Source: Acidimicrobiales bacterium (GTDB taxonomy: Bacteria; Actinomycetota; Acidimicrobiia; Acidimicrobiales; WLNW01). From it: a DNA stretch of 64,000 bases. The stretch spans positions 6,697 through 70,696 of the forward strand of contig JBDTLT010000009.1 in the NCBI GenBank assembly GCA_039934635.1, written 5' to 3'. Positions within the stretch are counted from its first letter, which is position 1. Every line of letters starts with the position of its first letter. Below are positions 20,098 to 27,174 of the stretch, in pieces. Below the pieces are notes generated by a model, which worked only from the letters and a program-made list of their open reading frames with translations, was not told the DNA's origin and did not search any database. A program made the position numbers and the translations under genes.

Positions 20098-20925
20098 ATG
20101 CCGAATGCCGTACTCACTGTTCGTCCTGCTGCAGGCGCCCTCGGTGCCGTTGTGGAAGGAGCCGATCTGAGCCGACCCCTCGGCCCCGACGGGGTCGACC
20201 AACTGCACCAGTTGCTGCTCGAGCACCTCGTCTTGTTCTTCCCCGGCCAAGACCTCGACGACGACCAACACCTGCAGTTCTCGCTCCAATTCGGCGACTA
20301 CTACACCCATCCCATCGCGCGGGCCGCGAACCTCGGCGCCCGGGTCGGTCACATCGTCGACGACGTCGACCACCCGCCGTTTCAGGACGAGTACCACACC
20401 GACGTCAGCTGGGACTCGGTGCCGCCGACCTTCGGGGTCCTGCGCATGATCGACCGCCCGGCGCGTGGCGGCGACACGATATTCGCCAACATGTACACCG
20501 CCTACGACCGGCTTTCCGACACGATGAAGGGATGCGTCGACGGTCTGACGGCCTGGCACGACATGGGCGAGGGCAAAGCCTTTCGTAGCAAGTCGGGCAA
20601 CTCTGCCACCGACATGGCGGCCGAGCTACAACCCGGTGCCGAGCATCCGGTTGTCGGCGTGCATCCGGTGACCGGCCGGCGCTATCTCTACGTCAACCGC
20701 GGGTTCACCCGGCGCATCTGCGGTATGCACAAGAACGAAAGCGATGCGCTCGTGCGCTGCCTCGCCGACCACGCCATCAACCCCAACTTTCAGGTGCGCT
20801 GGAATTGGACGGTCGGCGACGTGGTCTTGTGGGACGAACGTTGCACCCAACACTTCGCGGTGGCCGATCACTACCCGCAGCGGCGAGAGACCGCTCGCGT
20901 CAACGTCACGTCGCCGACGCTCTGA
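20098..20925 (+). CDS. TauD/TfdA-family Fe(II)/2-oxoglutarate dioxygenase
   Basis: I trimmed ORF 19993..20925 to the ATG at 20098. The facial-triad HxD is in YHTDVSW, followed by GGDTIFANM and a distal His region (QHFAVADH). Confidence 0.85.
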   Translation: MPNAVLTVRPAAGALGAVVEGADLSRPLGPDGVDQLHQLLLEHLVLFFPGQDLDDDQHLQFSLQFGDYYTHPIARAANLGARVGHIVDDVDHPPFQDEYHTDVSWDSVPPTFGVLRMIDRPARGGDTIFANMYTAYDRLSDTMKGCVDGLTAWHDMGEGKAFRSKSGNSATDMAAELQPGAEHPVVGVHPVTGRRYLYVNRGFTRRICGMHKNESDALVRCLADHAINPNFQVRWNWTVGDVVLWDERCTQHFAVADHYPQRRETARVNVTSPTL

Positions 20926-20928
20926 GTC

Positions 20929-22128
20929 TCAGGGACTCGGTACACCGAGCAACAGAACCCGCGACGATCCGTTCGCCCACAACCCATCGGCCGATGGCCC
21001 GGTTGCGTCGCGGTTCGTACCGGTCAGATCGAACGCCGTCGTAACCGTTCCTCGCGTCACGTCGACCAGCGCCAGGCCGTCCGCGCTGATCGCCTTCGCC
21101 GACGACGCGACATAACGCAGGTAGACGAGATTGTTCACCGCGCCGGCGACAGAGGCGGATGCGAAGTCGGCCGGCAGCATCGTCTTCGCGCCGGTTGTGC
21201 CCACGAGCGCGAGCGGCTTCGCGGCTTCGACCTTGAAGCCGTCGACCGTCGTGGGGGCCGGCGCCTCCTTCATCGTCAATTGCAGCGTCGGATCGGTTGC
21301 GCCCGCCTCGAGTCGCACGAACACACCGGTCCGCTCGCTCTTCGGACGTTGGAGATCGACCAGGTATCCGTCGTCGAGCGCCGATGCATTGACCATGCGG
21401 TTGGTCGCACCGATGTCGATGGCCTCGTCCACGAACCGGAACGTCGTCAGGTCGACCGTGCGCCGGACGATGTACGGGATGCGGTCACCGTCCACCGCGC
21501 CGTCGGCGAACAAGAAGCTGAAGCGATGATCGTCCACGACCTGAAGGCTGTTGGTGAAGAGCGAATGCGACGAATCGATCGCGCTGGTCGTGTAGTAGTT
21601 CTTGCCCTTCGTGTCGTAGCTCTCGATCAGCACATCGGTGCCGACACCCTCTCGCGCGTCGTCGCCGACGTCGGCCGTCGACGCGCGCAAGGCAACGACC
21701 CAACCTGACCCGACGGCGACATGCGGCACGCCGGCGGTCGCGATCGGTCTCCACGAGGGGTCGCGGCCGACTTCCTCGACCGTCCACCCCTTGTTGACGC
21801 GCAGGTACTTCGCCGCGTCGTCTTCCATCGCGACGACGAACGGACCGCTGGTGCCATTCGTGATCGCGAGCAACACGCCGTTTTGGTTCGTGGCGGTTAC
21901 CGAACCGGCTTTGAGCGCTTCGAAGCTGCTCGACGATTTCAGCGGGACGTAGTGGCCCTTGTCGTCCCCGTCGAGGATCGGCGAGCCCAGTTCACCGCCG
22001 GGCGCCGCCGTCTCGATCGAAGGCCCCAACGATGTGTGCGCCGGATCGCCCGAGGACTCGGCCTTCTTGCCCGAACAGGCGCCGACCACGAAAACCAGTG
22101 CCATCACTGCGGCCAGTGCCCGTTTCAT
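20929..22128 (-). CDS. Lipoprotein of unknown function, 399 aa
   Basis: The signal and lipobox are MKRALAAVMALVFVVGAC. The composition looks beta-rich. It is the last gene of the minus-strand cluster 25444->20929. Confidence 0.75.
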   Translation of the reverse strand: MKRALAAVMALVFVVGACSGKKAESSGDPAHTSLGPSIETAAPGGELGSPILDGDDKGHYVPLKSSSSFEALKAGSVTATNQNGVLLAITNGTSGPFVVAMEDDAAKYLRVNKGWTVEEVGRDPSWRPIATAGVPHVAVGSGWVVALRASTADVGDDAREGVGTDVLIESYDTKGKNYYTTSAIDSSHSLFTNSLQVVDDHRFSFLFADGAVDGDRIPYIVRRTVDLTTFRFVDEAIDIGATNRMVNASALDDGYLVDLQRPKSERTGVFVRLEAGATDPTLQLTMKEAPAPTTVDGFKVEAAKPLALVGTTGAKTMLPADFASASVAGAVNNLVYLRYVASSAKAISADGLALVDVTRGTVTTAFDLTGTNRDATGPSADGLWANGSSRVLLLGVPSP

Positions 22129-22167
22129 CCCCCTCGTATCGGCGCGCGGATGGGTTTGTTTGAGGGA

Positions 22168-23058
22168 TTAGCCGGCGCAGCGGAAGCTCAGGTTGCCCGT
22201 CGTGCTGTCCGGGCTGTTCGAACTGCGGGCGGGCACCCGAAATCGGAAGCAATACGACTCGTGGCACAAGAACGACCCACCCCGCATCACGCGTTGGGTG
22301 CCGTGGGGCGGTCCGGTCGGGTTGCGTCGGGGCCCGTCACGGTGGAATTCGGCGTCGAACCAGTCGTGGCACCACTCCCAGGCGTTGCCCACGACGTTGT
22401 ACAGGCCGTAGCCATTGGGGGCGAAGGTGTCGACCGGCGCCGTGCCGTAATAGCCGTCCTCGACGGTGTTGACGTTCGGGAACGTGCCCTGCCACACGTT
22501 GCACTGATGGCGTCCGTCGACCAACACCTCGTCACCCCACGGGTAGCGCTTGCCCTCGAGGCCGCCGCGCGCGGCGAACTCCCACTCGGCTTCGGTCGGC
22601 AGCCGCAGGCCGACCCACGCGCAATACGCCTGCGCGTCATCCCACGAGACATGCAACACCGGATGATCGAGGCGGTCCGCGAGATCGGACTGCGGGCCTT
22701 CGGGATGGCGCCACTGCGCACCGAAGACCTGACGCCACCATTCGGCCCCCACCACCCCCCGAGTCTCGACGAAGTCGTCGGGCAACAGACCGGCGAACAC
22801 GAACGACCAACCAAACCGCTCGGCGTCGGTGACGTGTCCCGTGGCGTCGACGAACGTCGCGAATTGCCCATTCGTCACCGCGTATCGATCGATGGAGAAC
22901 GCGTCGACCGTCACCCGCCGCGCCGGGCCCTCGCCATCACCCGGATAGTCAGGGCCGCCATCGTTTCCCATGGTGAATTCGCCACCATCGAGGCGCACGA
23001 GTGAGTGGGCGTTGCGGTTGTCGGGCACCGCTCCAGCACAGCCCAGCCGCCACGGCAT
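22168..23058 (-). CDS. Formylglycine-generating enzyme (FGE/SUMF1 family) with the catalytic Cys pair
   Basis: RGGSFLCHESYCFRFRVPARSSNSPDSTTGNLSFRCA is a near-verbatim match to the aerobic FGE active-site segment. AWEWCHDW is also present. The ATG lies 6 nt after the upstream stop. Confidence 0.88.
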   Translation of the reverse strand: MPWRLGCAGAVPDNRNAHSLVRLDGGEFTMGNDGGPDYPGDGEGPARRVTVDAFSIDRYAVTNGQFATFVDATGHVTDAERFGWSFVFAGLLPDDFVETRGVVGAEWWRQVFGAQWRHPEGPQSDLADRLDHPVLHVSWDDAQAYCAWVGLRLPTEAEWEFAARGGLEGKRYPWGDEVLVDGRHQCNVWQGTFPNVNTVEDGYYGTAPVDTFAPNGYGLYNVVGNAWEWCHDWFDAEFHRDGPRRNPTGPPHGTQRVMRGGSFLCHESYCFRFRVPARSSNSPDSTTGNLSFRCAG

Positions 23059-23064
23059 GGCAAC

Positions 23065-24489
23065 TCAGCGAACGTCGAGCGTCTCGACCGTGAACTTGGC
23101 GCCGTTGCCCATCCACTCCATTCCGTACGTGCTCTTGTCCATTCGCCGCAGTGTGGCTTGCTCGATCGTCACCCGGTGGCCCAATAGTTTCTCGAGTGCA
23201 TCGAGCGAGTCGGGCAACTGCAACGGGTTCGTGAGTCCGTCGACGAGTTGCTGCGCCGCGGGATGGGTCTCCGGGTCGCGGAGATCGATGACCGCAGTGT
23301 GGCGTTCGATGTTCTTACCGATCTCGGCGACGATCGTCAGTTCGATGCGCGAGAAGTCGCCGGTGGCGGTATCGCGAACCAGGCCGACCTTCAGCTCGGC
23401 TCCGGCGAGCTTGGAGAGATCGAGCCCGAACAAGCGGTACGTGATCGGCGTCGCGACCTCGCCCCTGACGTCCATGTAGTAGGTCTTTTGATCCGGGCGT
23501 TGTTCGACGCCCACAACCGCGCGCCCGTTGAGCGAGACGCCCACTTTGCCCTTGACGGGGATCTTCTTCACCAACGACGCCAACGGTCCCAACGGACCGA
23601 GCGGGTTCAACCCCGCGCCCGCGCTGACGCCCGCGGTGACGCCGCCTTCGGTGAACTGGCTCAAGGGTTGCGGCCTCGTCCAGTTGAGCCGCTTGCGCAG
23701 CGCCGTGATGGCGTCATGCGCTTTCCACAGCGGCAGGTGGTCGACGACGCCGACCACTTTCTTGGTGATGCCCGTGACCGCACCCGGCTGGCCGAGAACA
23801 CCCGGCAATGTGAAGCGACGCGCCGCGAAGTCGAGCAGATCGCTGGCCATGAACTCGTCGAGCTCGTCGGCACCGATCTCGTAGGTCGTGCCGTGGGCCA
23901 AGAGCACCTCGATCCACGCCTTTGCCGAGGCTCCCGTTGTCGTCGTCGACTTGCCGGTGTGGAATTCGCTGTCCATGCCGCCGCTCGACGCGAGGCCGAA
24001 AGCTCCCTCCTCGATGCGCGTCACGCGTAGCCGGCCGCTGTGCAGGTGTTCGACCCGCACCATGTAGGACGCGTCGAGCTTGAGACCGGTAACCGCCAAG
24101 AGCGGGATGTACACGCCCGCGGCCACGGTGTACAGCTTGATCGACTCTACGGGATCACACGGCGAGTCGAAGCCCAACGCAGTCGAGGCACCCAACCGAC
24201 ACGCCGCGGCATCGATGGTCACGGAACGCGCCACGCTCAGCAATGACGTCTGCAGCGCGAGGTCGAGAACCAGCCCTTGTGCCGTGTCGGCGCGGCCGCG
24301 CAAGACCGCTCCGGTTTGCACGAGTTCGCCGGCAAGGCCCCGCATGATCTCGGGCATCGATGACGCGAGTTCACTGTCGAAGACCGCCCGGCCGATGTCG
24401 AGTGCGAGAACATCCGCAAGGTCGGCCGTAGCGACCAATCGATCGGCGAGAAGGCGCACGCCTTCGGGTTGCATGCCGGTGAAGGCCAC
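23065..24489 (-). CDS. Hypothetical 474-aa protein; helical N-terminal ~100 aa and a beta-rich C-terminal region; candidate secreted effector
   Basis: The N-terminus MAFTGMQPEGVRLLADRLVATADL matches the N-terminal motif of the WXG-like protein two genes upstream. I recognise no catalytic motif, TM segment or signal peptide. Confidence 0.75.
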   Translation of the reverse strand: MAFTGMQPEGVRLLADRLVATADLADVLALDIGRAVFDSELASSMPEIMRGLAGELVQTGAVLRGRADTAQGLVLDLALQTSLLSVARSVTIDAAACRLGASTALGFDSPCDPVESIKLYTVAAGVYIPLLAVTGLKLDASYMVRVEHLHSGRLRVTRIEEGAFGLASSGGMDSEFHTGKSTTTTGASAKAWIEVLLAHGTTYEIGADELDEFMASDLLDFAARRFTLPGVLGQPGAVTGITKKVVGVVDHLPLWKAHDAITALRKRLNWTRPQPLSQFTEGGVTAGVSAGAGLNPLGPLGPLASLVKKIPVKGKVGVSLNGRAVVGVEQRPDQKTYYMDVRGEVATPITYRLFGLDLSKLAGAELKVGLVRDTATGDFSRIELTIVAEIGKNIERHTAVIDLRDPETHPAAQQLVDGLTNPLQLPDSLDALEKLLGHRVTIEQATLRRMDKSTYGMEWMGNGAKFTVETLDVR

Positions 24490-24522
24490 GGTTGTCCAGT
24501 CTCATGATCATCGAATCGGTCA

Positions 24523-24948
24523 TCAGTGCGAATTCGCAGACACCCAGTCGGGCGGAGTCGGCGGGGCCTCAGGTCGTCGCGGGGCCGGCCCGGGTGCCGC
24601 GACGAGATCGGGCATGAGGGCGTGTGCGTCTGCTTGCACCGCCCATCGTCGCCGCTCGCCTTCATACACATCGTTGGCGCTGTCGAATTCGCCCAGCGCC
24701 GCCTGATATGCCGCACACGTCTCGGCACGGCGGCGACACGTCGCCGCGAGATCGCGCAGATCGTCGGCCCGATTGCGCAGCGTGCCCCGCAAGTGGTCGA
24801 ACCACAGGCTCAATTCGATCGTGAGCAGTCCACCTACGAGCACACCTTCGTGGAGTAGATCGTGGGGGCCGAGGAACATCTCGTCGACGAGTACCGCCGA
24901 CCGATCGAACTCGCCGGCCGCGCGTTCGAAGTCACCTTGCGTGGGCAT
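24523..24948 (-). CDS. Hypothetical 141-aa predicted helical protein with a Pro-rich tail
   Basis: The ATG lies 7 nt after the WXG-like gene stop. Codon bias is consistent with its neighbours. I recognise no family. Confidence 0.65.
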   Translation of the reverse strand: MPTQGDFERAAGEFDRSAVLVDEMFLGPHDLLHEGVLVGGLLTIELSLWFDHLRGTLRNRADDLRDLAATCRRRAETCAAYQAALGEFDSANDVYEGERRRWAVQADAHALMPDLVAAPGPAPRRPEAPPTPPDWVSANSH

Positions 24949-24955
24949 CGCGTGA

Positions 24956-25444
24956 TCAGGCGACCGAGAGACCGGTGTTCATCACCATGTCGAGGTTCGC
25001 TCGTTGTCCTTGGACGGCGCTGCTCATGGTCTGCGTCGAACTCTGCGCGTTCACGAGCGAGCTCGCCAACTGCTGTGCGTAGTCCGTCAAGGATGCCGCC
25101 ATCTGATCGATCGCCCGGTGGAAGTCGGCAAACGTTTCTTTCGTCGTCGTCTCGGCCTGTTGCATCGAGGCGTCGAACTGCTGGTAGGCACCACGAAAAC
25201 GCTCGGCATTGGCGCCGGTCCATTGGGCCGACGTCGACGAGGTGCTCGCGGCCCGTACCGACTCGCGCAAGGTGTCCATCTGCGTGGTGATGCGCTGCAG
25301 GGCGGTGGTGGCCGCCGTGCGGACCGACTCGACGACCTGATTGGTGTCGGCGGTCGAGCGGGATTGGCAATCCGCGATGGCGCCCCCGGTGCGGTCGAGT
25401 TGACCGGCGAGCGCGCTGAGATCGTCGAGTTGTGCACCGAGCAT
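24956..25444 (-). CDS. WXG100-like (ESAT-6-like) helical-hairpin protein, enlarged to 162 aa
   Basis: A central SAQ-W-T-G-ANAERFRGAYQQF segment is flanked by long, Q/A/T-rich, helix-prone stretches. An AGAGGA-like SD lies upstream of the ATG. Confidence 0.7.
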   Translation of the reverse strand: MLGAQLDDLSALAGQLDRTGGAIADCQSRSTADTNQVVESVRTAATTALQRITTQMDTLRESVRAASTSSTSAQWTGANAERFRGAYQQFDASMQQAETTTKETFADFHRAIDQMAASLTDYAQQLASSLVNAQSSTQTMSSAVQGQRANLDMVMNTGLSVA

Positions 25445-25536
25445 GAAAGGTCCTCTTTGGTTCGTGGGTCGAAGGATCGCAGTATTGAAGATACTGAAAT
25501 AGATTGAAATGACATGAAGATTCTCGCCGAGAGTGG

Positions 25537-27174
25537 GTGCACTGTCAAGGCGTTCATCGGAAGAACCGGGGAGTCGACTTCAATGGCCCCGTGGTTCCGT
25601 TCGATCGCCGGCAGTCGCTGCGGCGCCTGGCCGACGAGTCCTTCGACGTCCTCGTCGTCGGCGGTGGGATCACCGGTGCCGGCTGTGCACTCGACGCCGC
25701 AACGCGGGGGCTGCGGGTGGCACTCGTCGAGGCCAACGACTTCGCATCCGGCACGTCGTCGAAGTCGTCCAAGCTCGTGCACGGTGGGTTGCGGTACCTG
25801 CAGAACGGCGAGCTGCGTCTCGTCTACGAGGCGTTGGCCGAACGGCAGATCCTGGCGGAGAACGCACCGCACCTCGTGCAGATGCTGCCGTTCCTCTTGC
25901 CGATCTTCCACGATGGCGGCTTCATCGATCGGCGCCTTGCCCGCGGCCTCGGTCTGGCGATGTGGGGCTACGACCTCACCGGCGGACTTCGCTACGGCAA
26001 GTTGCACGACCGGCTGTCGCAGTCAGAGGCGCTGACTCGCTTTCCCACACTCGATGCAACGCGACTGGCCTACGCGTACGTGTACTACGACGCGACGGCC
26101 GACGATGCCCGGCTCACCCTGACGATTGCGCGCACCGCGTCGTACTACGGCGCCGCTGTCGCGAACTACTCGCCCGTGCAGTCACTCATGCACGATCGCG
26201 ATGGACGCGTCGTGGGTGCAACCGTCGAGGCCGACGGCGCCGAAATCGCAATTCGTGCGCGCGTGGTGATCAACGCCTGTGGGGTCTGGAGCGACCGCAT
26301 TCGGGCAATGGATCCGGGTGCGACTGCGCCGATGATCCGTCCGGCCAAGGGCGTGCACATCACCGTGCCGCGATCGCTGATCCGCAACGAGATCGCGGCA
26401 GTGCTGCCGGTGCCCGGCGACAAGCGCACCGTGTTCGTAGTGCCGTGGGGCGACTTCACCTACGTCGGGACGACCGACACCGACTATGACGGCACCATCG
26501 ACGACCCTCGCTGCACCGACGACGACATTGCGTACTTGTTGCGCACGATCAACGCGGCGCTCAAACCGCCGATCTCGCGCGACGACATCGTCGGCGCCTG
26601 GGCGGGGCTGCGACCCCTGGTCGCTCTGTCAGGGGCGCGCGGCCGCCGCGCCCGCGATCTCTCTCGGCGTCATCTCGTGCACTCCGCGGCCAGCGGCCTG
26701 ATCACGGTGACCGGCGGCAAGCTGACCACGTACCGGCGCATGTCCGAGCAGACCATCGATAGGGCGATTCGAGCACTCGGCCGGCACGGTCATCGCTGCC
26801 TCACCGCACGAGTCCCGCTCGTCGGCGCCGAGCGCTTCGAGCCCGGTACGGCGGACTCTCATCTCGCGGCGCGTTTCGGCACCGAGGCCGGCGCGGTACG
26901 CGCGCTCACTCGCCAAGCCGGTCTCGAACGGCCACTGATCCCGGGGCTCCCCTACTTGCGTGCGGAGGTCGTCTTCGCGGCGCGCCACGAGATGGCCCGA
27001 ACGGTCGACGATGTGTTGAGCCGGCGCACGCGGGCGCGCATCCTGGCGCGCCGGGCAAGCGTCGCTGCTGCGGCCGACGTCGCGATGCTGCTCGGTGCCG
27101 AGCTCGGGCTCTCGCCCGAAGTGCAGCGCGCGCAGGTCACCACCTATCGCACGCGCGTCGATGACGCTGAGTAG
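25537..27174 (+). CDS. glpD: FAD-dependent glycerol-3-phosphate dehydrogenase
   Basis: FDVLVVGGGITGAGCALDAATRGLRVALVEANDFASGTSSKSSKLVHGGLRYL is the GlpD N-terminal signature. The start is GTG and may be a few codons downstream. Confidence 0.88.
   Translation: MHCQGVHRKNRGVDFNGPVVPFDRRQSLRRLADESFDVLVVGGGITGAGCALDAATRGLRVALVEANDFASGTSSKSSKLVHGGLRYLQNGELRLVYEALAERQILAENAPHLVQMLPFLLPIFHDGGFIDRRLARGLGLAMWGYDLTGGLRYGKLHDRLSQSEALTRFPTLDATRLAYAYVYYDATADDARLTLTIARTASYYGAAVANYSPVQSLMHDRDGRVVGATVEADGAEIAIRARVVINACGVWSDRIRAMDPGATAPMIRPAKGVHITVPRSLIRNEIAAVLPVPGDKRTVFVVPWGDFTYVGTTDTDYDGTIDDPRCTDDDIAYLLRTINAALKPPISRDDIVGAWAGLRPLVALSGARGRRARDLSRRHLVHSAASGLITVTGGKLTTYRRMSEQTIDRAIRALGRHGHRCLTARVPLVGAERFEPGTADSHLAARFGTEAGAVRALTRQAGLERPLIPGLPYLRAEVVFAARHEMARTVDDVLSRRTRARILARRASVAAAADVAMLLGAELGLSPEVQRAQVTTYRTRVDDAE

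Follow-up and report, generated by a model that had tools for sequence, protein, structure and literature searches.

A candidate type VII secretion substrate module with a long WXG-like hairpin protein in an Acidimicrobiales bacterium

Research on type VII secretion has concentrated on mycobacteria and Bacillota and has barely touched the Acidimicrobiia, a deep-branching class whose members are mostly uncultured. We analysed a 64,000-nucleotide (nt) stretch of contig JBDTLT010000009.1 from an Acidimicrobiales bacterium, referred to below as the window, in which three adjacent genes, here named A, B and C, recall the substrates of type VII secretion systems (T7SS). Several described systems invite comparison. 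The LXG toxins of the T7SSb of Bacillota are encoded with Lap1 and Lap2 (DUF3130/DUF3958) or with Lap3 and Lap4 (PMC10801868, PMC9600955); these toxins, whose LXG domain has nine helices, depend on two small helical Lap proteins encoded upstream, and an elongated helical bundle forms (PMC10801868). The WXG100 proteins EsxA and EsxB (PF06013, TIGR03930) offer a second comparison. In Schaalia odontolytica, a member of the Actinomycetota, candidate Esx substrates are encoded outside the Esx cluster, each beside a gene for a WXG100-like hairpin, and the pair has been read as effector and targeting factor (PMC13622651). The systems named T7SSc to T7SSj combine an EccC/EssC-type ATPase and a WXG100 protein with otherwise variable components, and their substrates lie beside extra WXG100-related genes (PMC11217815). 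Acidimicrobiia receive no mention in that survey, and our literature searches for type VII secretion combined with Acidimicrobiia found no paper.

The three genes are intact minus-strand open reading frames (ORFs), as the initial annotation had it, with gaps of 7 nt between A and B and 33 nt between B and C. Their positions in the window, and those of the parts discussed below, are the following (lengths in amino acids, aa; HMM, hidden Markov model):

24956..25444, minus strand: gene A, a 162-aa elongated WXG100-like helical hairpin (ORF, family alignment and AlphaFold model)
25214..25222, minus strand: codons for W75-T76-G77, the WXG turn of A (invariant in 32 homologues and the sole non-helical stretch of the model)
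24523..24948, minus strand: gene B, a 141-aa small helical partner (ORF, with a homologue directly downstream of A)
23065..24489, minus strand: gene C, 474 aa (ORF)
24205..24489, minus strand: N-terminal domain of C, residues 1 to about 95, a helical hairpin and putative targeting domain (model secondary structure and HMM)
23065..24162, minus strand: C-terminal beta-rich domain of C, residues about 110-474 plus the stop codon (AlphaFold model)

We read the trio as a type VII (T7SS/ESX-type) substrate module of this bacterium, and put the probability of that reading at roughly 0.65. It is well supported, on the model of LXG toxins with their Lap partners, by the WXG hairpin of A, the co-occurrence of the genes, the adjacency of an EccC-like ATPase gene in relatives, the modular cargo of C, and a fusion of that cargo to a WXG domain. 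As in LXG loci, two genes for small helical hairpins lie upstream of a larger gene that encodes a modular protein, a likeness of layout that had been pointed out earlier and that holds. The proposal of a secreted-effector module stands in the form of a type VII substrate module that is an orphan in the window and has EccC beside most of its relatives (23 of 35 loci); the suggested kinship with LXG effectors does not extend to family membership, as none of the three proteins matches the Pfam models for LXG (PF04740), Lap, DUF3130/DUF3958 or T7SS_signal.

Protein A carries the motif SAQ-W75-T76-G77-ANAERFRGAYQQFD at its centre. In an alignment of 32 A homologues, reaching down to 34% identity, residues W75, T76, G77, N79 and F83 are invariant, and a conserved C-terminal motif reads QRANLDxVMNTGLS. 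The AlphaFold model built with this alignment (mean predicted local distance difference test score, pLDDT, 92.9) consists of a helix at residues 2-72, a turn at 73-77 and a second helix at 78-161; W75-T76-G77 falls in the only turn, and the predicted structure is therefore a helix-turn-helix with W-x-G at the turn. Invariance and model together place the W-T-G turn between long helical arms, noted from the first as a WXG hallmark, beyond chance. A is also longer than canonical WXG100 proteins, as had been remarked: family members measure 162-166 aa where about 100 residues are expected, and the two helices have about 70 and about 84 residues, compared with about 40. Profile comparison by hhalign nevertheless aligns the A family with WXG domains of canonical length (probability 94%, E = 1.4e-7), with an insertion of about 33 residues in helix 1 of A. 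The canonical-length profile came from the first 90 or so residues of proteins distantly related to the beta-rich domain of C, which read MRLGADxxxLdxLaxxL...W-x-G-P-D-A-x-R-F-R. This match indicates that A is, judged from its profile, an elongated member of the WXG-hairpin superfamily, albeit one that fails both the formal Pfam threshold and the usual length. A YxxxD sequence had been noted just after the turn, and Y88-x-x-x-D92 does lie directly past it; we rejected it as an export signal because it is not conserved, position 88 varying between Y and A and position 92 among D, Q, N, H and R across the family, and it does not lie in a C-terminal tail.

Protein B has a conserved start (MPTxxEFExAAxxF) and, at residues 37-40, where a hairpin turn is expected, the pattern h-x-G-G. 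It forms with A an adjacent pair like EsxA and EsxB, but one in which the turn of the second member lacks W and in which the YxxxD/E tail is replaced by a proline-rich stretch (residues 120-141) that ends in W-(V/I/M)-(S/E). This tail could, to judge from its sequence, act as a docking signal, though it matches no known export motif. A further motif, TCRxRAxxC at residues 71-78, contains an invariant Cys78 and a mostly conserved Cys71. Family searches with B gave nothing significant: WXG100_2 comes up as a weak match for 4 of 10 members (best E = 0.0086), and the B profile retrieves only designed coiled coils among PDB sequences. The B protein of the window is recognisable in that of an EccC-linked locus (31% identity, E = 8e-7). 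The hhalign comparisons of the B family are suggestive only: E = 7.5e-4 and a probability of 25% for the C head, E = 4.5e-4 and a probability of 33% for the WXG N-terminal domains.

In the close relatives of C, which form 27 clusters at 50-84% identity and are all metagenomic, the trio keeps its place between glpD and an FGE-sulfatase gene; as this conservation lies inside general synteny, it says little by itself. We scanned for A loci in one genome per species, followed by HMM and phmmer searches, and recovered 35 loci, all from metagenome-assembled genomes (MAGs) of Acidimicrobiia type. In 33 of these loci A is immediately followed by B, and in 27 the third gene carries the C-head domain, which shows that the trio is conserved as a unit. 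An EccC-like ORF was found within 10 kilobases (kb) of A in 23 of the 35; of the 12 contigs that lack it, seven stop no more than about 2.5 kb from A, which leaves EccC present in 23 of 28 adequately flanked loci. Its placement follows one of three layouts: A-B-C and then a convergent EccC gene (for example L006, L009, L020 and L048), a divergent EccC gene upstream (L014-L016, L037, L038 and L043), or co-directional and abutting A-B-EccC genes with no C-head gene (L042 and L044-L046). One metagenome appears to hold the two parts separately, with EccC and no trio on contig Ga0063293_10000375 (L047) and the trio at the end of contig Ga0063293_10000505, assigned to MAG SZUA-35 (L035). The MAG CBESNA01 carries two A-B-C loci (L016, L022) with different EccC subtypes, a 1450-aa ORF divergent upstream in one and a 1201-aa ORF convergent downstream in the other. 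Acidimicrobiia can thus hold more than one such system.

The neighbouring ATPase has its best NCBIfam matches in EssC (TIGR03928, E = 5e-94) and EccCa (TIGR03924, E = 1e-82), compared with E = 3e-21 for FtsK and 1e-5 for TraB, all scores being below the equivalog cut-offs. It measures 1128-1240 aa. One or two hydrophobic helices lie close to its N-terminus, the FtsK_SpoIIIE domain is accompanied by another P-loop region around residue 1000, and there is only one canonical Walker A motif. By these comparisons it is EccC/EssC-like rather than an FtsK or TraB protein, which links the module in these relatives, as LXG modules are linked, to an ATPase of the EssC/EccC kind. We inspected precomputed annotations over 8-10 kb at four EccC-linked loci (L006 8001-15716; L009 3901-10284; L020 9995-18544; L048 9124-16634) and found no gene of EccB, EccD, EccE, MycP, EssA, EssB, EsaA or EsaB type. 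Unlike T7SSc to T7SSj, these Acidimicrobiia loci have no EsaB/YukD-like, EccB/D/E or MycP gene in these annotations, and they may represent another, minimal type VII subtype. Genes for an aminotransferase and for an MptA_B/GT2 glycosyltransferase recur at their flanks. With the Schaalia substrates the trio of the window shares a position away from an eccC cluster and an adjoining small gene for a hairpin resembling WXG100; it differs in the class of Actinomycetota concerned and in having two helpers, one of them unusually long, and the likeness is one of layout.

The model of C (mean pLDDT 67) begins with a helical head (helices 8-38 and 45-90), followed by a low-confidence linker and a beta-rich body of 12 long strands with helical inserts. 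Hydrophobic and polar residues alternate in most of the body strands, which fits either a barrel or a sheet packed on one side; no internal repeat was found in the beta-rich domain. C, which is 100% identical to a protein in NCBI, has no NCBIfam match and no Pfam match at E <= 10, and its family profile finds no PDB sequence match, in keeping with the remark in the initial annotation that the C-terminal region of the 474-aa protein held no recognised motif. The linker (residues 97-113) contains two invariant cysteines, Cys97 and Cys111, the latter within a near-invariant S-P-C-D-P. FGE targets follow the consensus CxPxR. The corresponding site in C reads C-D-P-V-(E/K/Q), and the idea that the FGE-sulfatase encoded next to C modifies this invariant C-D-P site was set aside as a doubtful link. 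A pattern common to the N-termini of A and C, which had been taken as a shared motif, is literally present in both proteins; homology between the two was rejected, as hhalign of the family profiles gives a probability of 0.85% (E = 0.065).

Modularity of C is a further line of evidence for a secreted substrate. Past the C head, the proteins encoded at the A loci fall into at least seven unrelated groups, which bears out the proposed combination of a helical N-terminal domain with unrelated C-terminal domains. The commonest type, a helical protein of about 600-660 aa and up to about 850 aa, occurs at 14 loci and the beta-rich type at six, all in the clade of the window; several types of 275-360 aa have glycine-rich hydrophobic stretches, and there are types with transmembrane segments. 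An exhaustive profile search over 1.84 billion representative proteins returned 46 matches of two kinds. In the first, the C head (positions 1 to about 80) stands on proteins of 690-1549 aa, two of which have a Pesticin-type lysozyme toxin domain at the C-terminus (PF16754, E = 1e-43) and one of which bears LysM; these domains point to an extracytoplasmic destination. In the second, the beta-rich domain stands on proteins of 430-490 aa with an A-like WXG domain at the N-terminus. The sequences thus present the beta-rich domain joined to N-terminal modules of type VII kind in two independent ways.

With its conserved head and polymorphic bodies C works, as far as its sequence relatives indicate, like an LXG toxin, and like LXG toxins some members of the C-head family carry a known antibacterial toxin domain, Pesticin. 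By profile search it is not recognisable as an LXG protein. LXG domains are about 200 aa long, whereas the C head has about 90 aa and a single hairpin. Other differences are that A is a WXG-bearing hairpin of 162 aa, that the FxxxD of Lap1 is not conserved in A or B, that the beta-rich type of C has no evident immunity gene, and that the host belongs to the Actinomycetota, class Acidimicrobiia.

Two loci outside the window illustrate the arrangements of these cargo proteins. At L020 (10903-14099; chromosome OZ245048.1), C occurs as a tandem pair of paralogues, 328 and 352 aa long, whose heads are nearly identical and whose bodies are unrelated; each is followed by a small ORF that matches no Pfam family (176 and 148 aa, respectively), and a hydrophobic, glycine-rich stretch (AGAGAAGAHAGCAVGTVVGGALAGPVGGGVGCFIVGAAGG) closes the first paralogue. 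The layout of paralogue and small ORF resembles a toxin-immunity arrangement. The WXG-beta fusion P0113 is a solitary gene at L049 (688-2058), the one usable locus from a metagenome scan for relatives of such fusions. Its neighbours are a PhoD phosphatase gene on one side and, on the other, a convergent AMP-binding (AMP-ligase) gene followed by genes for enoyl-CoA hydratase (ECH) and UbiA; within 7 kb of it, neither type VII nor immunity genes were found.

A number of results weigh against a type VII substrate module. The absence of an EccC gene from the 64 kb, as first noted, was upheld: phmmer and hmmsearch found no EccC-like ORF in the window, where no ORF exceeds 810 aa, and no EccC-like gene was found at the loci of the two nearest species (L012, L013). 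A homologue search with the EccC of L020 gave no match with the ABI658 locus-tag prefix of this genome, the NCBI matches having come unnamed. The alignment of A with Pfam WXG100 is in register (E = 2.9e-4) and sub-threshold, at 21.5 bits against a cut-off of 27.3, as is that with TIGR03930 (E = 0.0025, 18 bits against 44.85). WXG100 is the commonest weak Pfam match across the A family (18 of 32 members at E <= 0.01, best 5.1e-5), yet none of the 32 passes the curated cut-off, and Apolipoprotein, DUF948 and syntaxin-like coiled-coil families score about as well on A. For the identification of A as WXG100, the hairpin and the profile link to WXG domains therefore stand, and membership by score does not. 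All that Foldseek finds in the PDB for the A model are long helical hairpins of a generic kind (best E = 0.088); chemoreceptor and other such hairpins come first, with EsxB 29th and the TelA-LXG/LapA3/LapA4 complex 39th, a ranking that does not discriminate WXG100 or Lap proteins; the family profile against PDB sequences finds spurious coronavirus HR1 and coiled-coil matches, and EsxB at E = 0.6-1.2. No canonical export motif, YxxxD/E or FxxxD, is conserved in the alignments of A or B. For the body of C the model confidence is moderate and there is no convincing structural neighbour. Foldseek of C against the PDB finds only outer-membrane barrels (FadL, AIDA-I; best E = 5.6e-5), and global superposition does not support a transmembrane beta-barrel of the FadL or autotransporter type (template modelling score 0.10-0.29, root-mean-square deviation 18-25 Å). 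Finally, no immunity-like gene follows C, the next gene encoding the FGE-sulfatase enzyme, and the downstream neighbour of P0113 is the convergent AMP-ligase gene, not an immunity gene. The lack of an evident cognate immunity gene for the beta-rich type argues against a classical antibacterial toxin harmful to its own producer.

The alternative that survives best keeps the pathway and changes the roles: A and B would be the core pair, equivalent to EsxA and EsxB and serving the machine generally, and C would be a housekeeping substrate or an envelope or structural accessory rather than a toxin-like effector. The A-B-EccC operons without a C-head gene and the very strong conservation of A (the ratio of nonsynonymous to synonymous substitution rates, dN/dS, is 0.04-0.21) are grounds for thinking that A-B may be such a pair. 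A genome scan found a single A locus per window-clade genome, the beta-rich C is conserved and syntenic across the clade with no immunity gene, and the commonest type of C is common to 14 loci, all of which would suit such roles. What speaks for exchangeable cargo is the occurrence of the C head on so many unrelated bodies, Pesticin toxin included, together with the tandem C paralogues of L020, each followed by a small ORF. We regard this alternative as rather unlikely, noting that it overlaps with the substrate-module explanation.

A module with no part in secretion, made of cytoplasmic coiled-coil proteins beside an FtsK/SpoIIIE ATPase that moves DNA in conjugation or segregation, seems to us very improbable. 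It would account for the sub-threshold WXG100 scores, for the generic hairpins and chemoreceptors at the head of the structure search, and for the lack of other annotated type VII membrane components near EccC at L006, L009, L020 and L048. However, the ATPase, with its length and further P-loop regions, resembles EssC and EccC much more closely than FtsK or TraB, W-x-G is invariant in the hairpin turn of A, cargo of extracellular type (Pesticin, LysM) is found on C-head proteins, and the genes that flank the trio are metabolic, not those of mobile elements. That the trio is a stranded remnant, its genes decaying or re-used in a lineage that has lost EccC, would agree with the absence of EccC from the 64 kb and from L012 and L013 and with a position among metabolic genes, but is the least probable of these accounts given three intact ORFs with full-length homologues down to about 50% identity, dN/dS well below 1, and the split arrangement of EccC and trio in L047 and L035.

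On the reading that we prefer, a type VII substrate module, A and B would bind the N-terminal helical hairpin of C, as Lap proteins do in LXG systems, to give an elongated helical bundle, with B contributing a small helical hairpin and a probably disordered, proline-rich tail. This bundle would be recognised and exported by an ATPase of EccC/EssC type encoded elsewhere in the genome, and the exported cargo would be the beta-rich C-terminal domain of C, most likely acting on the membrane or cell envelope. We infer that the three proteins form a complex and that it is exported, that this genome encodes EccC, and how the beta-rich domain acts. A membrane- or envelope-directed activity of the body is favoured, tentatively, because of its amphipathic strands, its 3Di similarity to barrels and the membrane-like character of sister cargo types. 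A bolder version holds that the Acidimicrobiia possess a distinct minimal type VII lineage, consisting of an EccC-like ATPase, A and B with no known EccB/D/E/MycP or EssA/B/EsaA nearby, which exports through a new targeting domain of about 90 aa a beta-rich cargo that inserts into membranes or forms pores and needs no immunity protein; we consider this conceivable and, taken as a whole, doubtful.

The families defined here, namely the long WXG protein, its partner, the short targeting head and the beta-rich cargo, are four that have no Pfam or NCBIfam model. The occurrence of A-B beside EccC offers a clear comparative-genomic rule for finding substrates in Acidimicrobiia, and the module shows that the logic of two helpers plus a modular effector, known from LXG toxins, exists in Actinomycetota too, built from unrelated sequences. 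If the beta-rich cargo is membrane-active, a new type of effector would be added. Practical impact will be modest until a cultivable host is tested.

Other features of the locus concern its expression, coding status and surroundings. A promoter-like site lies about 75 nt upstream of A:

25520..25548, minus strand: TTGACA, 17 nt, GAGAAT (consensus match only)

It is the sole sigma-70-like match in positions 20800-25700, where 0.3 are expected by chance, and it sits in the divergent intergenic region between A and glpD. Measured against four relatives, dN/dS is 0.28-0.39 for B and 0.19-0.44 for C, compared with the lower values for A given above; all three are under purifying selection and are thus real coding genes. 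A, B and C alike lack signal peptides and transmembrane segments, both by prediction and on direct reading of the sequences; nothing thus indicates a Sec route, which counts in favour of the type VII reading. The GC content of the window is about 65%, and the trio shows no compositional break from its surroundings.

The flanks of the trio consist of metabolic genes, with no mobile-element genes among them. On the side of A lie a divergent glycerol-3-phosphate dehydrogenase gene (glpD), an enoyl-CoA hydratase gene and a Rieske oxygenase gene. On the other side, the FGE-sulfatase family gene, which follows C in all close relatives, begins 6 nt past the stop codon of C (37-247 nt in the relatives), and beyond it are genes for a putative lipoprotein of 399 aa, TauD, a molybdenum hydroxylase and an acyltransferase/beta-lactamase fusion. 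The 399-aa ORF (20929-22128, minus strand) has an N-terminus of lipoprotein type (MKRALAAVMALVFVVGACSGKK) and no Pfam match; its position is not occupied in this way in L001 or L003, and is taken in L004 by a 397-aa gene.

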